Below, piece after piece: positions 4,191 to 26,437 of a stretch of DNA of 32,000 nucleotides. The stretch is taken from contig JBILHS010000031.1 in NCBI GenBank assembly GCA_044350425.1, forward strand, positions 13,637 to 45,636, read 5' to 3'. The notes below the pieces were generated by a model. It had not been told where the DNA came from. It worked only from the letters and a program-made list of their open reading frames with translations, and searched no databases. This DNA is from Saprospiraceae bacterium (lineage in GTDB: Bacteria > Bacteroidota > Bacteroidia > Chitinophagales > Saprospiraceae). Both the position numbers and the translations under genes were made by a program. Position 1 is the first letter of the stretch, and every line of letters starts with the position of its first letter.

Positions 4191-4196
4191 GACTTT

Positions 4197-4266
4197 GATG
4201 TATGATGTATGATGTATGAACTATGATGTATGATGTATGAACTATGATGTATGATCTATGATGTAT
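4197..4266. repeat. Ten contiguous heptamers GATGTAT (variants GAACTAT, GATCTAT) with 21-bp higher-order periodicity, filling the fcl-manC junction
   Basis: Units counted by hand from 4197 to 4266. On the minus (mRNA) strand it reads ATACATC and ends 6 nt before the manC ATG (4190). Confidence 0.95.
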
Positions 4267-4273
4267 GGGGTGG

Positions 4274-9205: not shown

Positions 9206-9426
9206 AAATGTGGTCAATGTGTTAAATGTGGTCAATGTGTTAAATGTGGTCAATAAGTTAAATGTGGTCAATGTGTTTAATGTGGTCAATGTGATCAATG
9301 GATAAAAGCGGCCAATTTTACCTGGTCGAGCCCAAAACACATTGACCGCATTGACCACATTGACCACATTTAACTTATTGACCACATTTAACTTATTGAC
9401 CACATTTAACTTATTGACCACATTAA
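9206..9426. repeat. 221-bp inverted pair of tandem arrays filling the junction between the dehydrogenase and aminotransferase genes
   Basis: The left arm (9206-9301) is about five copies of the 18-mer AAATGTGGTCAATGTGTT. A spacer occupies 9302-9337. The right arm (9338-9426) consists of 9-mers CATTGACCA / CATTTAACT, the reverse complement of the left unit. Read directly. Confidence 0.95.
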
Positions 9427-11243: not shown

Positions 11244-11285
11244 GATGTATGAGGTATGATGTATGATGTATGATGTATGATGTGT
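11244..11285. repeat. Six heptamers GATGTAT (variants GAGGTAT, GATGTGT)
   Basis: Counted by hand. On the minus strand it reads ATACATC and ends 6 nt upstream of the NUDIX ATG. Confidence 0.95.
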
Positions 11286-11436: not shown

Positions 11437-11500
11437 CAACATCATACATCATACATCATACATCATACATCATAGTTCATACATCATACATCCCTACATC
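11437..11500. repeat. About nine heptamers ATACATC (variants CAACATC, ATAGTTC), the inverted partner of 11244-11285
   Basis: Counted by hand. It abuts the GTG start at 11501 with no gap. Confidence 0.95.
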
Positions 11501-21582: not shown

Positions 21583-22062
21583 ATGCAACTCATCGGTGAA
21601 TATCCGGTGTCCCTTGACGACAAGGGCCGCTTGCGCTTACCAACCGCGCTGCTCCGCCAATTACCTGCTTTAACCGCAGGATCCAATGGCGACGGAGCTG
21701 CTTATGAATTTGTAGTAAACCGGGGGTTTGAGAAGTGTCTCACACTTTACCCCAAACCGGTCTGGGACGGCATCGCTGCCAAGTTGAGCCGTCTCAATAG
21801 TTTCAATGACCGGAACCGCGCCTTTGTACGCTCTTTTCACTACGGAGCGTATCCACTGACCACCGACAGCGCGGACAGAATCCTTTTGCAGAAGCCTTTG
21901 ATGGATTATGCGGGTATCACCAAGGATGCAGTACTGCTTGCTATGAACGGCAAGGTTGAAATCTGGTCGCCAGAGCAATATGCTTCCACCGCCGCCTTTG
22001 ATCCGAATGAATTTGCTGATTTGGCAAATGACGTGATGGGCGGGGAGAACGATGATGTATAA
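21583..22062 (+). CDS. mraZ: Transcriptional regulator MraZ
   Basis: MQLIGEYPVSLDDKGRLRLPTALLRQL with a second half-domain ...TTDSADRILLQKPL. 159 aa. The TAA at 22060-22062 lies inside the first heptamer array. Confidence 0.93.
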   Translation: MQLIGEYPVSLDDKGRLRLPTALLRQLPALTAGSNGDGAAYEFVVNRGFEKCLTLYPKPVWDGIAAKLSRLNSFNDRNRAFVRSFHYGAYPLTTDSADRILLQKPLMDYAGITKDAVLLAMNGKVEIWSPEQYASTAAFDPNEFADLANDVMGGENDDV

Positions 22063-22095
22063 GGTATGAAGTATGATGTATGAAGTATGATGTAT
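22054..22095. repeat. Six heptamers GATGTAT (variants AAGGTAT, GAAGTAT) overlapping the mraZ stop codon
   Basis: Counted by hand. Confidence 0.95.
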
Positions 22096-22143
22096 GAAAG
22101 GCTTAAGCTGAATGCGAGAGTGCATTTTCAAGCTTAGTTTTTC

Positions 22144-22199
22144 ACACATCATACTTCATACATCATACATCATACATCATACATCATATATCATACATA
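22144..22199. repeat. Eight heptamers ATACATC (variants ACACATC, ATACTTC, ATATATC, ATACATA), the inverted partner of 22054-22095
   Basis: Counted by hand. It ends 2 nt before the rsmH ATG at 22202. Confidence 0.95.
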
Positions 22200-22201
22200 A
22201 T

Positions 22202-23146
22202 ATGGTGTACCACGAGTCTGTCCTATTACACGAAAGCATTGATCTACTAGGCATTACGCCTGGTGGGGTTTATGTAGATGCGACGTTTGGCGGCGGCGGT
22301 CACTCCAAATTGATACTCGAAAAAATGGGCGAAAAAGGTCGCCTGTTTGCCTTCGATCAGGATGAGGATGCTAAGCGAAACACGGAACAGCAGGCGTTTT
22401 CAAGCCATTCTGGCTTTGTTTTCATTCCATCGAATTTCAGGCATTTGAAACGGCAATTACGTGCAGAAGGCGTAAGACCAGGCACTGTAAATGGAATCCT
22501 TGCAGATCTGGGTGTAAGCAGCCACCAGCTGGATACAGCAGAAAGGGGATTCTCTTATCGATTCGAAGCAGCACTCGATATGCGGATGAGTCGCCTGGAT
22601 GGGGAAACAGCTGCGGACATACTCAATACACGAAGTGCAGAAGAACTGCAGCGCATTTTTAGCGAACTTGGGGAGTTGAGAAACTCTAAAACGCTGGCAC
22701 ATGCAGTGATACAGGAGCGGGAACGAAAGCGTTTTCGAACCACAGGCGACCTGCTGGAATTGGCTACCAAGAATCTGATGGGAGAACGTATGCGCTACCT
22801 CTCACAGGTTTTTCAGGCCTTGCGCATGGAAGCTAATGATGAACTCGGGGCGCTGGAAGATTTTATGAAGGATGCTTTGGAAATGCTGGCGCCGGGTGGA
22901 AAACTGGCAGTGATCACCTTTCATTCGCTGGAAGATCGAATGGTGAAGAATTATATGAAAGCGGGCAATGTAGCGGGAGAGCCGGACCAGGATTTTTATG
23001 GCAATATCACAAAGCCCTGGAAACTGGTAACCAAAAAGCCTGTAGAAGCAAGCCAGGCAGAAACCAAGCAAAATGCCCGCTCCAGAAGTGCAAAGCTTCG
23101 GGTCGCCGCAAAAAATGTAACTAACGAACAATTTAAAACGAAATAA
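22202..23146 (+). CDS. rsmH: 16S rRNA (cytosine1402-N4)-methyltransferase
   Basis: MVYHESVLLHESIDLL...YVDATFGGGGHSK...ITFHSLEDRMVKN. ATG 22202 was chosen because the upstream part of the ORF-track entry is a translation of the repeat. Confidence 0.93.
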   Translation: MVYHESVLLHESIDLLGITPGGVYVDATFGGGGHSKLILEKMGEKGRLFAFDQDEDAKRNTEQQAFSSHSGFVFIPSNFRHLKRQLRAEGVRPGTVNGILADLGVSSHQLDTAERGFSYRFEAALDMRMSRLDGETAADILNTRSAEELQRIFSELGELRNSKTLAHAVIQERERKRFRTTGDLLELATKNLMGERMRYLSQVFQALRMEANDELGALEDFMKDALEMLAPGGKLAVITFHSLEDRMVKNYMKAGNVAGEPDQDFYGNITKPWKLVTKKPVEASQAETKQNARSRSAKLRVAAKNVTNEQFKTK

Positions 23147-23176: not shown

Positions 23177-23485
23177 ATGGCTAATAAGTTGCTTAATGCC
23201 CTTAACGTAAGTCGCCACACCACAGATCTGGTGTTTGGTAATTTTCAATTTCTGCTCTTTATAGGCGGATTGGGTATTCTGTACATCGCCAATGCACATT
23301 ACTCTGAAAAAGGGGTGCGGCGTATTCAGTCGTTGCAGAAGGAAATAAAAGAGTTGAAATGGGAATATACCTCGATCAAAAGTGAAACGATGTATAAGAG
23401 TATGCAGAGTCAGATTGATGAGAGTCTGGAGCCTGTAGGGCTTGATTTGGAGAACAAAGGTCCTAAAGTGATAAGTGTTAAGTGA
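23177..23485 (+). CDS. ftsL: Bacteroidota-type cell-division protein FtsL
   Basis: 102 aa, with a single TM helix (FQFLLFIGGLGILYIANAHY) followed by a coiled coil (IQSLQKEIKELKWEY). It occupies the conserved position between rsmH and ftsI. The TGA lies inside the repeat array. Confidence 0.8.
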   Translation: MANKLLNALNVSRHTTDLVFGNFQFLLFIGGLGILYIANAHYSEKGVRRIQSLQKEIKELKWEYTSIKSETMYKSMQSQIDESLEPVGLDLENKGPKVISVK

Positions 23486-23498
23486 TAAGTGTTAAGTG
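23464..23498. repeat. Five heptamers of the type (A/T)TAAGTG, with a 14-bp higher-order unit ATAAGTGTTAAGTG, overlapping the ftsL stop
   Basis: Read directly: aaagtg ataagtg ttaagtg ataagtg ttaagtg. Confidence 0.9.
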
Positions 23499-23524
23499 GT
23501 GCACATGAATCAAGCTGCAAATGC

Positions 23525-23926
23525 ATGGAAAATCAACGACCTAATAAAGTGGTACTAAGAGAAAAGAGTTTTTTACGGGCCATTAGAATTGTCAGGCTCC
23601 GTAAGCATTTGCGCGAACAAAAAAAGGAGTATGAAATATCGAGGTAGTTGTTCAAGAGTGGTACAAATCCAGGCACAATGGTTAAGGAGTCAGAGTATGC
23701 GCAGTCGGGAGCTGATTTTATAAATAAGCTAAAAGTCGCCCAAAAGGAATTGAATGAAACCAGATATTGGATTGAACTGCTTTTTGCTACTGACTACCTC
23801 TCAGAATCTGAAAAAGTGTCCATTCTAAATGATGTGGATGAAGTAATGAGATTAACGACCAGTTCAATTAAAACTCGAAAAGCCAATCTCGAATCAAGTA
23901 AAAAGCACAGCTCTAAAACCACTTAA
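23525..23926 (+). pseudogene. Four-helix-bundle protein gene (23S rRNA intervening-sequence protein / Avd family, PF05635-like) with an in-frame TAG at 23645-23647
   Basis: Hand translation from ATG 23525 gives MENQRPNKVVLREKSFLRAIRIVRLRKHLREQKKEYEISR*LFKSGTNPGTMVKESEYAQSGADFINKLKVAQKELNETRYWIELL... It is collinear with the family pattern ...EKSF.F...I..L...L...KEY.LSKQLLRSGTSIGAN..EA...QS..DF..KL.IA.KE..ET.YWL.LL. The stop falls where the family has Gln (CAG to TAG). Confidence 0.75.
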
Positions 23927-23947
23927 TACTAACCACTTAACACTAAC
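23920..23947. repeat. Four heptamers CACTTAA / TACTAAC / CACTTAA / CACTAAC, the imperfect inverted partner of 23464-23498
   Basis: Read directly. It contains the TAA stop of the four-helix-bundle ORF and ends 3 nt before the ftsI GTG (23951). Confidence 0.9.
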
Positions 23948-23950
23948 AAA

Positions 23951-26116
23951 GTGCTAAACGTCAAAAACGAAGTCCTGATCCGCGTGTACTCGGTTGCTGC
24001 CGTAGTATTGGTGGTGGCTGTCGTGATCATGACGCGTTTGTTCCAATTGACAGTAACTGATGCACACAAGTGGGAAGCAAAAGCAGATAGTTTGTACGTG
24101 AAACTGGTGGATGTGCCCAGTCAGCGGGGGAATATTCTGGCGGACGATGGATCGCTGCTTGCTACCTCGCTTCCGTTCTTTGACATACATTTTGACGCAA
24201 AAGCCGAAGGACTTACCGCGGAGATCTTTAATGATCAGGCAGTGGATAGCCTGGCCTGGTTGCTCTCTACCTATATAGACCAGTCTTTTACCCAAGGAGC
24301 ATACCGCCAATGGCTGGATACTTTACGCGCGGCGGATCCAAAGACCAGGGGGATTCGGTATGTGCCGATCGCAAAGAACCTTCCGTACTCTAAGATGCTC
24401 CTGATCAAAACCTTCCCGATTTTCAGGGAAGGGCGCCATGCTGGTGGGTTTATTGCCGAGCAGACCAGTCGACGTGAACGTCCATTTAAAATCCTGGCGC
24501 AACGAACCATTGGTTATGCGCAACGGGAGGGTGCTTTGCCAGTTGGTATCGAAGGCAGTTTCAATACGATCCTCGAAGGTAAACGGGACAATGCACCCAA
24601 ACAACTCATGTTGCGCGTTCCCGGCGATATTTATATACCCATCAATGATCTGGCGGAAATTGAGCCCGCATCAGGCGACGATGTGGTGACAACCCTGGAT
24701 ATAAACATTCAGGACGCCGCAGAATCTGCCCTGCTCAATGCCTGTGAAACCCACAATGCAGACCATGGTTGCGCCATTGTGATGGAGGTAAAGACGGGTA
24801 AGATCCGTGCCATGGCAAATATCGGACGAGCGCAGTCTGAAGGGAAATCGGGCTACTGGGAAACATATAATTATGCAGTAGGAGAGCGGGTAGAGCCTGG
24901 TTCGATGTTCAAACTTGCCACTTTTATGGCCATGCTCGAAGCGGGCGAATTGGACGATTTCGATGAAAAAATACCTGTATTTGGCGGGAAAGTGAAGATC
25001 TACGATGAGGAACTTGTTGACGCGGTGCCGCATGGACTGGATTCAATGACGATCCGCCAAATCTTTGCACAATCATCCAATGTCGGTACGGCTACGCTTA
25101 CGATGAAGTATTTCAAGAGCAATCCGAATGCATTTGTAAAACAACTTCGTGACTTTAATCTGGACATGGCAACAGGGATTGAAATCGGCGGTGAAGAGAA
25201 CCCGATCGTGAAAAACCCGGACGACCCCAAAAGTGAATGGAGCGGCACTACACTACCCTGGATGAGCATCGGTTACGAACTGCTGCTCACCCCGATGCAG
25301 ATGCTGACCTTTTACAATGCAGTGGCAAACGACGGTCGTATGATGAAACCTTATCTCGTGCAGCGGACGGAGCATTACGGGGAGATCATGAAAGAATTCA
25401 AGCCCTATACCATCAAACGAAGCATTGCTTCAAACAACACGATCCGTAAGGCTAAGGAGCTATTGAGAGAAGTGGTCATCTCAGGTACGGCGCATAACAT
25501 CAACACAGACAATTATGCTATAGCTGGTAAAACAGGTACCGCACAGTTGAACTACCACAAGTTTCGCGCTTCGAAAGGCATTCGCCACCAAGCGGGTTTT
25601 TGTGGCTTTTTTCCTGCGGACAATCCGATTTACTCCTGTATCGTGGTCATCAGTGAGCCAGAGCGCGGTGGATATCATGGCGCAGAAGTGGCCGCTCCGG
25701 TGTTTCGCCAGATCGCTGACAAGTGTTTTGCGATGAAAGCAGAATTGCACAAACCGGTGAATGCAAATAAGCCGCTTGCCCTGAAAAATAGTCAGTTGCC
25801 CAGTTATGATGCTGGTTCACAGGAAGATATGAAAGAGAGTTTACGCTGGCTGGGACTTGATTTTAGCCCGGCCACTGACCTGGATGAATGGGGAGTGGTA
25901 GTTGCGAAAGATAGTATCGGACTCACGATGCAAAATCGGGTAGTAGGTGATAAGAACATTCCTTCTGTAGTAGGTATGGGCTTGAAGGATGCGATCTATT
26001 TGCTGGAGAATCGGGGGTGTCGGGTGCGTGTAGAAGGGGTAGGGAAAGTGCGGAGCCAGAGTCTGGCGCCAGGAACCCGGGCGAGTGGGCAGACATGTGT
26101 TTTATCCCTGGAATGA
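23951..26116 (+). CDS. ftsI: Peptidoglycan D,D-transpeptidase FtsI (class B PBP) with a C-terminal PASTA domain
   Basis: N-terminal TM anchor, then transpeptidase motifs GSMFK (SxxK), SSN and KTGTA, and a PASTA-like tail (VVGMGLKDAIYLLENRGCRVRVEG). GTG start at 23951. Confidence 0.92.
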   Translation: MLNVKNEVLIRVYSVAAVVLVVAVVIMTRLFQLTVTDAHKWEAKADSLYVKLVDVPSQRGNILADDGSLLATSLPFFDIHFDAKAEGLTAEIFNDQAVDSLAWLLSTYIDQSFTQGAYRQWLDTLRAADPKTRGIRYVPIAKNLPYSKMLLIKTFPIFREGRHAGGFIAEQTSRRERPFKILAQRTIGYAQREGALPVGIEGSFNTILEGKRDNAPKQLMLRVPGDIYIPINDLAEIEPASGDDVVTTLDINIQDAAESALLNACETHNADHGCAIVMEVKTGKIRAMANIGRAQSEGKSGYWETYNYAVGERVEPGSMFKLATFMAMLEAGELDDFDEKIPVFGGKVKIYDEELVDAVPHGLDSMTIRQIFAQSSNVGTATLTMKYFKSNPNAFVKQLRDFNLDMATGIEIGGEENPIVKNPDDPKSEWSGTTLPWMSIGYELLLTPMQMLTFYNAVANDGRMMKPYLVQRTEHYGEIMKEFKPYTIKRSIASNNTIRKAKELLREVVISGTAHNINTDNYAIAGKTGTAQLNYHKFRASKGIRHQAGFCGFFPADNPIYSCIVVISEPERGGYHGAEVAAPVFRQIADKCFAMKAELHKPVNANKPLALKNSQLPSYDAGSQEDMKESLRWLGLDFSPATDLDEWGVVVAKDSIGLTMQNRVVGDKNIPSVVGMGLKDAIYLLENRGCRVRVEGVGKVRSQSLAPGTRASGQTCVLSLE

Positions 26117-26119
26117 ATC

Positions 26120-26437
26120 ATGGAAATACTGATCCTGTTTGCACGGATCATTTTCTTTTATCTCATTTCCAGAATGTTATGGCTGTCCTATATGATTAGT
26201 CATTTAAGAGATGGGGAAACTGTTGAAAGCTTATCTAAATGGGATGTTTGGATGAATGTTGCGAGTAAAAGAATTAATAACCATCTCTGGCCTGGACCCT
26301 ATTTTAGTGAGTTTCATGATACGGATGAGATAAAGGAATGGATAAAGAAACGGAATTGGGTGGTAGCGTTTTTTTGGTCATTTGCCATTTTGGGAATTAT
26401 TGCTCAGATCATTTTTCACCCGGCTCCTTCAAAATAA
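26120..26437 (+). CDS. Hypothetical small membrane protein (two predicted TM helices) inserted between ftsI and murE
   Basis: The ATG lies 4 nt after the ftsI stop. Hydrophobic N-terminal (ILILFARIIFFYLISRMLWL) and C-terminal (VVAFFWSFAILGIIAQIIF) segments. A hand count gives 117 G+C in 318 nt (about 37%). No recognisable family. Confidence 0.5.
   Translation: MEILILFARIIFFYLISRMLWLSYMISHLRDGETVESLSKWDVWMNVASKRINNHLWPGPYFSEFHDTDEIKEWIKKRNWVVAFFWSFAILGIIAQIIFHPAPSK

Follow-up and report, generated by a model that had tools for sequence, protein, structure and literature searches.

Within a 32,000-nucleotide stretch of the genome of an uncultured Saprospiraceae/Lewinellaceae bacterium (GCA_044350425.1, contig JBILHS010000031.1, positions 13,637 to 45,636; hereafter the window), the cell-division genes ftsL and ftsI of the dcw operon are parted by a small gene of the PF05635 four-helix-bundle (4HB) family, which is itself enclosed between two complementary arrays of tandem heptamers. 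This insert is a decaying instance of a general gene-in-a-hairpin module that crosses phylum boundaries. We consider it probable that such copies represent a widespread and optional element in which a PF05635 gene of about 400 nt is looped by inverted arrays and processed by RNase III. The same design is found in rRNA, in housekeeping operons (dcw and mre) and in cas operons, and it joins in one architecture three things that have long lacked an explanation: the open reading frames (ORFs) of rRNA intervening sequences (IVSs), the very abundant four-helix-bundle genes of Cyanobacteriota and Bacteroidota, and the tandem heptamer arrays that these groups carry between their genes. Each of these parts was known before; no paper linking PF05635 genes that lie between protein-coding genes to inverted heptamer arrays was found in a literature search whose coverage left out subscription journals.

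The insert between ftsL and ftsI

The upstream gene of the pair, an ftsL of the Bacteroidota type (23177-23485, plus strand; PF19579 FtsL_2, 91.3 bits), was present in the ORF list of the window and has orthologs in more than 40 related loci. The proximal array, the 5' arm of the module (23466-23500, plus strand), supplies the final codons and the TGA stop (23483-23485) of this gene; it consists of G/T-rich direct repeats of the heptamers GTGATAA and GTGTTAA, and its copy number varies between orthologous loci. Tandem Repeats Finder (TRF) delimited this array at 23466-23498, either as 4.7 copies of a period of 7 or as 2.4 copies of the 14-mer AAGTGATAAGTGTT, with a match of 100%; the features described in an earlier reading of the same DNA (the original prediction) were all located within 2-3 nt of the positions given there. 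The 3' arm (23917-23947, plus strand) is a C/A-rich array of CACTTAA, TACTAAC and CACTAAC units, detected both by TRF, as 2.2 copies of the 14-mer AACCACTTAACACT, and as an inverted repeat of the 5' arm. It contains the stop codon of the 4HB gene (TAA, 23924-23926) and ends 4 nt from the GTG start of ftsI (PBP3; 23951-26116, plus strand), likewise an entry of the ORF list. This start aligns with the ATG or GTG starts of ftsI in its relatives, which were compared at 61 loci.

The complementarity of the two arrays, part of the original prediction, was borne out. Positions 23474-23500 of the 5' arm (plus strand) pair with positions 23918-23944, so that 24 of 27 nt (89%) are complementary across a separation of 417 nt. 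The strength of the stem was judged by the energy of the arm-against-arm duplex in place of the fold of the whole 531-nt region (23440-23970), whose unexceptional score (z = −1.6) is uninformative because the loop dominates the fold. The duplex reaches −34.1 kcal/mol, compared with −12.8 ± 3.1 kcal/mol for shuffled arms (z = −7), in keeping with the expectation that the arrays can fold, and in the minimum free energy structure of 23440-23970 the two arrays are paired together.

As had been anticipated, the loop holds a single four-helix-bundle ORF, in the frame given by the original prediction, that terminates inside the distal array. The 4HB gene (23525-23926, plus strand, 133 codons) starts at ATG 23525, leaving a gap of 24 nt to the 5' arm; the GTG at 23489, from which the ORF is called mechanically, is not used by intact orthologs. 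When the in-frame TAG at codon 41 was read through as Gln, the product scored 66.1 bits with the PF05635 hidden Markov model (HMM; cut-off 33.8) and 74.9 bits with TIGR02436 (cut-off 24), which confirms the family assignment made earlier. By sequence it also matches the solved four-helix-bundle structure 2rld_A over residues 10-121 (E = 3e-28). Intact orthologs of 133 amino acids (P0001-P0020) were recovered, the closest with 95% identity. Their dN/dS values of 0.03-0.09 are near those of ftsL and ftsI, and by this measure purifying selection acts on the 4HB protein in the genomes that retain it.

The window copy departs from this pattern. Protein and DNA alignments, read with the codon table, showed that the TAG (23645-23647, plus strand) replaces a nearly invariant Gln41, for which the sister strain (locus L073) has CAG, and that four further substitutions specific to the window (G9V, A51T, R54K and E70K) fall at residues that are otherwise invariant. 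Together, the stop codon and these four changes indicate from the alignments that the window gene is a fresh pseudogene of the PF05635 family, recently lost in this genome, and the decay suspected from the TAG alone is thereby upheld. Between the window module (23466-23947) and that of the sister strain (L073 4942-5423) the sequences differ by 2.5% (about 98% identity), and the 4HB genes differ by eight non-synonymous but only two synonymous changes. This contrasts with the flanking genes, for which dS was 0.40 (ftsL) and 0.27 (ftsI). The mraZ gene, too, is unusually similar between the two strains, and the pattern may reflect a recombination mosaic.

To follow the insert among relatives, 61 loci anchored on FtsI were compared, with L073 retrieved separately through its ortholog P0001; the closest species representatives have an FtsI 94% identical to that of the window. 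A 4HB gene lies at the ftsL-ftsI junction in 6 of the 61 loci (L001, L003, L005, L006, L008 and L025), and in L073 as well. The heptamer family of the window is found in L001, L005, L006, L008, L025 and L073, with very different copy numbers. Locus L003 (FtsI 91% identical) carries instead a different 4HB gene (55% identity) and a different heptamer (GAATGAT), while L014 (FtsI 94% identical) has kept both arrays around a 4HB gene reduced to two fragments by internal deletions. About 25 other loci have no 4HB gene at this junction, and many of their spacers still carry arrays of unrelated units. Where the insert is missing, ftsL and ftsI are separated by 19-60 nt (19 nt in L015), and the spacing is short in outgroup Bacteroidota. 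The presence/absence comparison proposed in the original prediction thus revealed a polymorphic site at which the module is present, replaced, reduced to a remnant or absent. To judge by these junctions, the insert is optional: it has been gained, swapped and lost across related species and is dispensable for the host. In L007 and L009 the same spacer is occupied, in place of arrays, by a long imperfect palindrome (…GATGTAATGGCACACGGATAG…CCGTGTGCCATTACATC…) that resembles a repetitive extragenic palindrome (REP) or a miniature inverted-repeat transposable element (MITE).

Recurrence of the design and its likeness to rRNA intervening sequences

The arrangement in the window is not peculiar to one junction. 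In the clade loci, all 4HB genes examined are bracketed by a G/T-rich array on one side and its C/A-rich complement on the other. Further sites include mreB-mreC (unit TAATGGT), rsmH-ftsL (unit GGCTGTT) and three other locations; the unit differs from site to site, the loops that bear a 4HB gene measure 389-492 nt, and in the orthologous modules of L025 and L062 the arms form up to 85-95 pairs. Array copy number can differ even where the enclosed protein is identical, as between L062 or L064 and L063. The gene at rsmH-ftsL belongs to the canonical subfamily (PF05635, 126 bits). An HMM built from close homologs of the window gene misses canonical-subfamily genes in L031 and L039, and these were found by ORF inspection and Pfam.

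An independent metagenomic sample of 61 4HB loci was then scored against 192 shifted controls. Inverted complementarity of the flanks exceeded the 95th percentile of the controls at 55 of the 61 loci, with a median flank score of 19 compared with 8 in the controls, and the flanks have period 7 almost throughout. The polarity is again G-rich on the 5' side and C-rich on the 3' side (49 of 55 modules). The stop codon of the preceding gene and the beginning of the 5' arm typically lie no more than about 10 nt apart, and in 46 of 48 cases that gene and the 4HB gene run in the same direction. An inverted pair of arrays is identical on both strands, and yet the orientation of the 4HB gene is biased, which argues that transcription from the upstream gene matters. 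A phage vector for this 4HB subfamily was considered and rejected, only 2 viral contigs having been found against at least 498 metagenome stretches.

On plasmids of Cyanobacteriota, Gemmatimonadota and Alphaproteobacteria, the same flanks accompany 16 of the 18 PF05635 genes examined, the hosts being Nostoc, Calothrix, Anabaena, Pseudanabaena, Stanieria, Geminocystis, Picosynechococcus, Leptolyngbya, Gemmatirosa and Azospirillum. Several of these modules lie inside operons: between cas6 and cas4 (L074 and L077), between cas10 and cmr3 (L166), and between the genes for the subunits of ribonucleotide reductase. PF05635 genes with inverted arrays thus occur within type I-D and type III-B cas operons of cyanobacterial plasmids, and these modules may explain the entry "23S rRNA IVP" in lists of CRISPR-associated domains (PMC10910872). 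Where a PF05635 gene turns up within an operon, as in this reported association with CRISPR, it may be a rider and not a functional partner. In a homologous series of Nostoc plasmid genes, the 288-nt gene WP_104899637 lies after the module on one plasmid and ahead of it on the other (L167 and L169), and the different junctions suggest independent insertion. The Pseudanabaena locus L074 is an exception to the rule of inverted heptamers: its 4HB gene is flanked mainly by direct hexamer arrays (AAAGCT in 17 copies upstream, 1313-1500; AAAGCC in 10 copies downstream, 1860-1944), and only a short inverted segment is present.

The closest parallel is provided by rRNA itself. On the Azospirillum lipoferum plasmid AZO_p2, a PF05635 ORF lies in a bona fide 23S rRNA IVS whose anatomy is that of the window module: 36-nt arms, made of G-rich heptamers of the GGAGGAC type and their C-rich complement, enclose a 397-nt loop filled by the ORF. 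The IVS is located about 1,150 nt into the 23S rRNA gene, roughly where helix 45 is expected. In Coxiella burnetii, the 23S IVS (428-444 nt) has a 28-bp stem and carries three to four GACAGAT heptamers, in a number that varies with the strain, ahead of a decaying S23p ORF; it is excised by RNase III, and the 5' cut falls at the first heptamer (PMC4990558). With these two matches, the earlier suggestion that the insert is IVS-like is well founded.

Comparison with the ORF-bearing 23S rRNA IVSs as a class (those of helix 45 in Coxiella burnetii, Leptospira and others, and that of Azospirillum) extends the likeness. Like the window module, these IVSs have terminal inverted repeats that form a stem of about 27-36 bp, a total size of about 430-480 nt, a loop taken up by a single PF05635 gene that reads in the same sense as the host transcript, a 5' arm of purine- or G-rich heptamers in strain-variable number, and an ORF prone to decay by substitutions and internal deletion. 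The window module has the complementary termini of about 20 bp or more that characterize an IVS stem, as well as the sense-oriented PF05635 ORF in the loop that characterizes the long IVSs. In contrast to them, it lies between two protein-coding genes of an mRNA operon and not in an rRNA helix (9, 25 or 45), its arms are longer and are overt tandem arrays, and the unit of these arrays changes from site to site. Excision by RNase III has been demonstrated for the rRNA IVSs, whereas for the window module it is proposed.

Proposed processing and rival explanations

These properties lead us to a model for the fate of the transcript. The 24 nt between the 5' arm and the ATG leave no room for a promoter, and the 4HB gene would therefore be transcribed as part of the dcw operon. 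The arms would then pair in the transcript and loop out the insert, and RNase III would cut the stem, by analogy with the ORF-bearing 23S rRNA IVSs. By the same analogy, cleavage would free a short 4HB message and part the ftsL message from that of ftsI. Stem formation in RNA, cleavage, and any mechanism of mobility are the elements that we infer.

Several results weigh against this model. No other stem of this kind is as weak as that of the window module (27 bp with 3 mismatches), and an Rfam search of the window, rRNA included, matched no family. Mismatches between the arms of the Bacteroidota modules, read on the sense strand, comprise 93 A.C and 50 G.U oppositions, the opposite of what selection on a helix in the sense RNA would leave, and an earlier strand-asymmetry test in the clade gave sense G.U 37 against 67, again without an excess. 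A wobble signature of RNA-level selection on the stems was accordingly not revealed by either test, while in the plasmid set (26 versus 15) and in the rRNA IVS (3 versus 1) G.U and A.C lean in the expected direction. In addition, gene-less inverted pairs far outnumber 4HB modules in the clade. The window alone holds three further inverted array pairs and one lone array, none of them with a gene and all spanning spacers from stop to start. One of these pairs, GATGTAT in 5.7 copies and ACATCAT in 8.9 copies (11244-11283 and 11439-11500; TRF), lies between divergent NUDIX and HerA-like genes, each of which has the array in its C-rich form directly ahead of the start codon. Both promoters must lie within the 155-nt loop, and therefore neither mRNA can contain both arms. 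An RNA hairpin cannot be the whole story at this pair.

Gene-less hairpins could be regarded as decayed or excised 4HB modules. This was examined in 25 loops (24 gene-less pairs and the L014 spacer) by blastn and a six-frame HMM search, and was rejected as a general origin, remnants being detected only in L014. Given the abundance of gene-less pairs free of 4HB remnants, the arrays may be primarily a feature of the host. We regard as possible, although rather doubtful, an explanation in which the inverted arrays are a clade-wide intergenic device and the 4HB gene is cargo in pre-existing loops, the stem having no function specific to an element; the C-rich, G-poor array might, for example, act ahead of start codons as an unstructured translation leader, and its G-rich partner after the stop codon might serve in coupling or in protection of the mRNA end. 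The clade loci contain 62 inverted pairs and 0.44 arrays/kb, compared with 4 pairs and 0.11 arrays/kb in outgroup Bacteroidota. Most of these pairs are gene-less with loops of 1-160 nt, forming a class apart from the loops of about 390-490 nt that hold a 4HB gene. Arrays of unrelated units in the ftsL-ftsI spacers of relatives that lack the gene point in the same direction, as do lone C-rich arrays abutting start codons (window 4196-4267; L012, L013 and L022), a polarity of G-rich after the stop codon and C-rich before the start codon kept in 57 of 68 pairs, and the report by MacGregor (2015) of heptamer arrays that immediately precede start codons in Beggiatoaceae, Cyanobacteria and Bacteroidetes. 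The excess of A.C mismatches suggests selection on the composition of the 3' arm and not on pairing. Against these observations stands the Azospirillum replicon, where the only period-7 array within 50 kb flanks the 4HB gene in the 23S rRNA; in that case the arrays are part of the module. The association of gene and arrays also holds in four phyla and at about 90% of independent loci, and our census found no other inserted small gene (the Uma2, DUF4377 and membrane-protein genes described below) inside an array pair.

A second alternative places the process in DNA. The arrays would act as homology arms, or as slipped or cruciform structures, through which the 4HB gene is exchanged by recombination between like units, RNA structure being incidental. 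The different gene and different arrays of L003 at the same junction would fit such a cassette, as would the varying array copy number around an identical protein in L062, L064 and L063, the two junctions occupied in the Nostoc plasmid series, the missing G.U signature and the scarcity of synonymous changes between the module and that of L073 in the face of the higher dS of ftsL and ftsI. Moreover, the closer the 4HB proteins at different sites, the more similar are their array units (rho = −0.24; none of 300 permutations as extreme), a correlation that is only suggestive, being confounded with host relatedness. The low divergence between the two strains is shared by mraZ, and a DNA process acting on an inverted pair should ignore orientation, in contrast to the 46 of 48 modules co-oriented with their upstream neighbor. 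On this balance we hold exchange of a DNA cassette to be distinctly improbable as the explanation. Neither a role of the arrays as host leader or coupling device nor their use as recombination arms is mutually exclusive with the processed hairpin module that we favor.

A broader proposal, that PF05635 genes together with inverted arrays of short period constitute a single self-propagating system present across bacteria, seems to us unlikely. The 4HB protein would act on the repeats that flank its own gene, be it in RNA or in DNA, and, much as the REP-associated tyrosine transposase (RAYT) does for REPINs, would help both the module and gene-less hairpins to be copied to further intergenic positions. 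Were this so, the ORF-bearing rRNA IVSs would be the rRNA-resident members of the system, with the heptamer arrays found in cyanobacteria, Saprospiraceae, Xanthomonas and others as its by-product. The module does resemble REP/REPIN-RAYT systems in having hairpin repeats in intergenic spacers and one gene flanked by inverted repeat copies. Unlike them, it has no Y1 (IS200/IS605-like) transposase, and the protein encoded in its loop, a small bundle of helices, has no known catalytic activity; its arms are tandem arrays, with many different units per genome, whereas REPs are single imperfect palindromes of 20-40 nt. With a PF05635 gene between tandem arrays, the module thus falls outside the REP/REPIN-RAYT class. 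It is likewise neither a MITE nor an insertion sequence: it has no transposase, its arms are multi-copy arrays of variable length, and a flanking duplication is absent.

The fold of the protein brings to mind diversity-generating retroelements (DGRs), of which the 4HB gene might be a remnant, namely an Avd accessory gene whose reverse transcriptase and template repeat have been lost. The fold of Avd recurs in PF05635 proteins (PMC10053308), and the window protein matches bAvd/Avd models weakly; like Avd, which works with nucleic acid in DGRs, it is small, basic and of the same fold superfamily. Its score with the Avd model NF033474 is 13.8 bits, far below the cut-off of 80, and, unlike Avd, it recurs as a solitary gene at housekeeping junctions with no reverse transcriptase, template or variable repeat beside it. 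Neither the 20 annotated ORFs of the window nor any related locus yielded a reverse transcriptase or another component of a DGR, and a DGR context was rejected; a DGR remnant is very improbable. Chance, or mis-assembly of a metagenome bin, is more improbable still: tandem repeats are hard to assemble and their copy numbers may be unreliable, but dozens of independent assemblies and finished plasmids share the architecture, and the arms pair far better than shuffled ones (z = −7).

Gene-less arrays and other small inserts

The remaining gene-less arrays of the window occupy spacers between other genes. In the mraZ-rsmH spacer, ATGAAGT/ATGATGT in 6.7 copies and TCATACA in 8.7 copies (22052-22098 and 22142-22202, plus strand; TRF) are separated by a 43-nt loop and form a duplex of −60.3 kcal/mol (z = −9.4). 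The spacer between the genes for a DegT aminotransferase and a UDP-glucose dehydrogenase, both on the minus strand, is filled by a pair of 9/18-mer arrays of about 10 copies each (9206-9300 and 9338-9424; TRF) with a 37-nt loop and a duplex of −133 kcal/mol. The lone array (4196-4267, minus strand; TRF), TACATCA in 10 copies in the sense of the genes, fills the spacer of two co-directional sugar-nucleotide genes. Among the arrays of period 5-10 in the clade loci, 127 of 208 have period 7.

With their period of 7 (TRF) and their variable copy number, the window arrays belong with the heptameric simple-sequence repeats of the short tandemly repeated repetitive (STRR), long simple sequence repeat (LSSR) or TAACTGA type. 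In published reports (PMC4679880, PMC4692102), intergenic heptamer arrays comprise cyanobacterial STRR-type repeats, TAACTGA in Beggiatoaceae, Cyanobacteria and Bacteroidetes, and GGGAATC arrays with convergent pairs in Xanthomonas. Like those of the window, they are described there as intergenic tandem 7-nt units, often abutting start codons and variable in copy number, which occur in reverse orientation after stop codons, and convergent (inverted) pairs are reported. The passages of these reports that were consulted describe no link to PF05635 genes and no gene enclosed by an inverted pair. Gene-less pairs were also observed beyond the clade. A 50-kb Gemmatirosa plasmid (L175) contains recurrent inverted pairs of a 9-mer in three copies, in which the G-rich arm comes first and the loops measure about 20-70 nt (for example 2403/2449, 10600/10648, 11186/11235, 18974/19015 and 20526/20591), and a prophage region of Azospirillum (L174, 25615-25735) contains one gene-less inverted pair of a 9-mer in three copies.

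Arrays of this kind have consequences for annotation. The mechanically called rsmH ORF of the window starts at ATG 22112 and translates the array (22112-22201) into "HTSYIIHHTSYIIH", while relatives align from ATG 22202; gene callers are likely to give such false N-terminal extensions wherever arrays abut start codons. More generally, long hairpins punctuate operons in these clades.

The dcw junctions of the clade take in several kinds of small inserts besides the 4HB module. Genes for putative endonucleases of the Uma2 family (PF05685) lie antisense in the ftsI-murE spacer of L009, L027, L029, L034 and L059, the copy in L027 being broken into fragments. A DUF4377 lipoprotein gene occupies the rsmH-ftsL spacer of two relatives (L024, 5217-5564; L027, 4718-5506). 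In the window itself, the ftsI-murE spacer is filled by an ORF for a predicted membrane protein of 105 amino acids (26120-26437), with no Pfam match and no flanking arrays; its homologs at the same junction in L011 and L012 make it another optional small gene of the dcw cluster.

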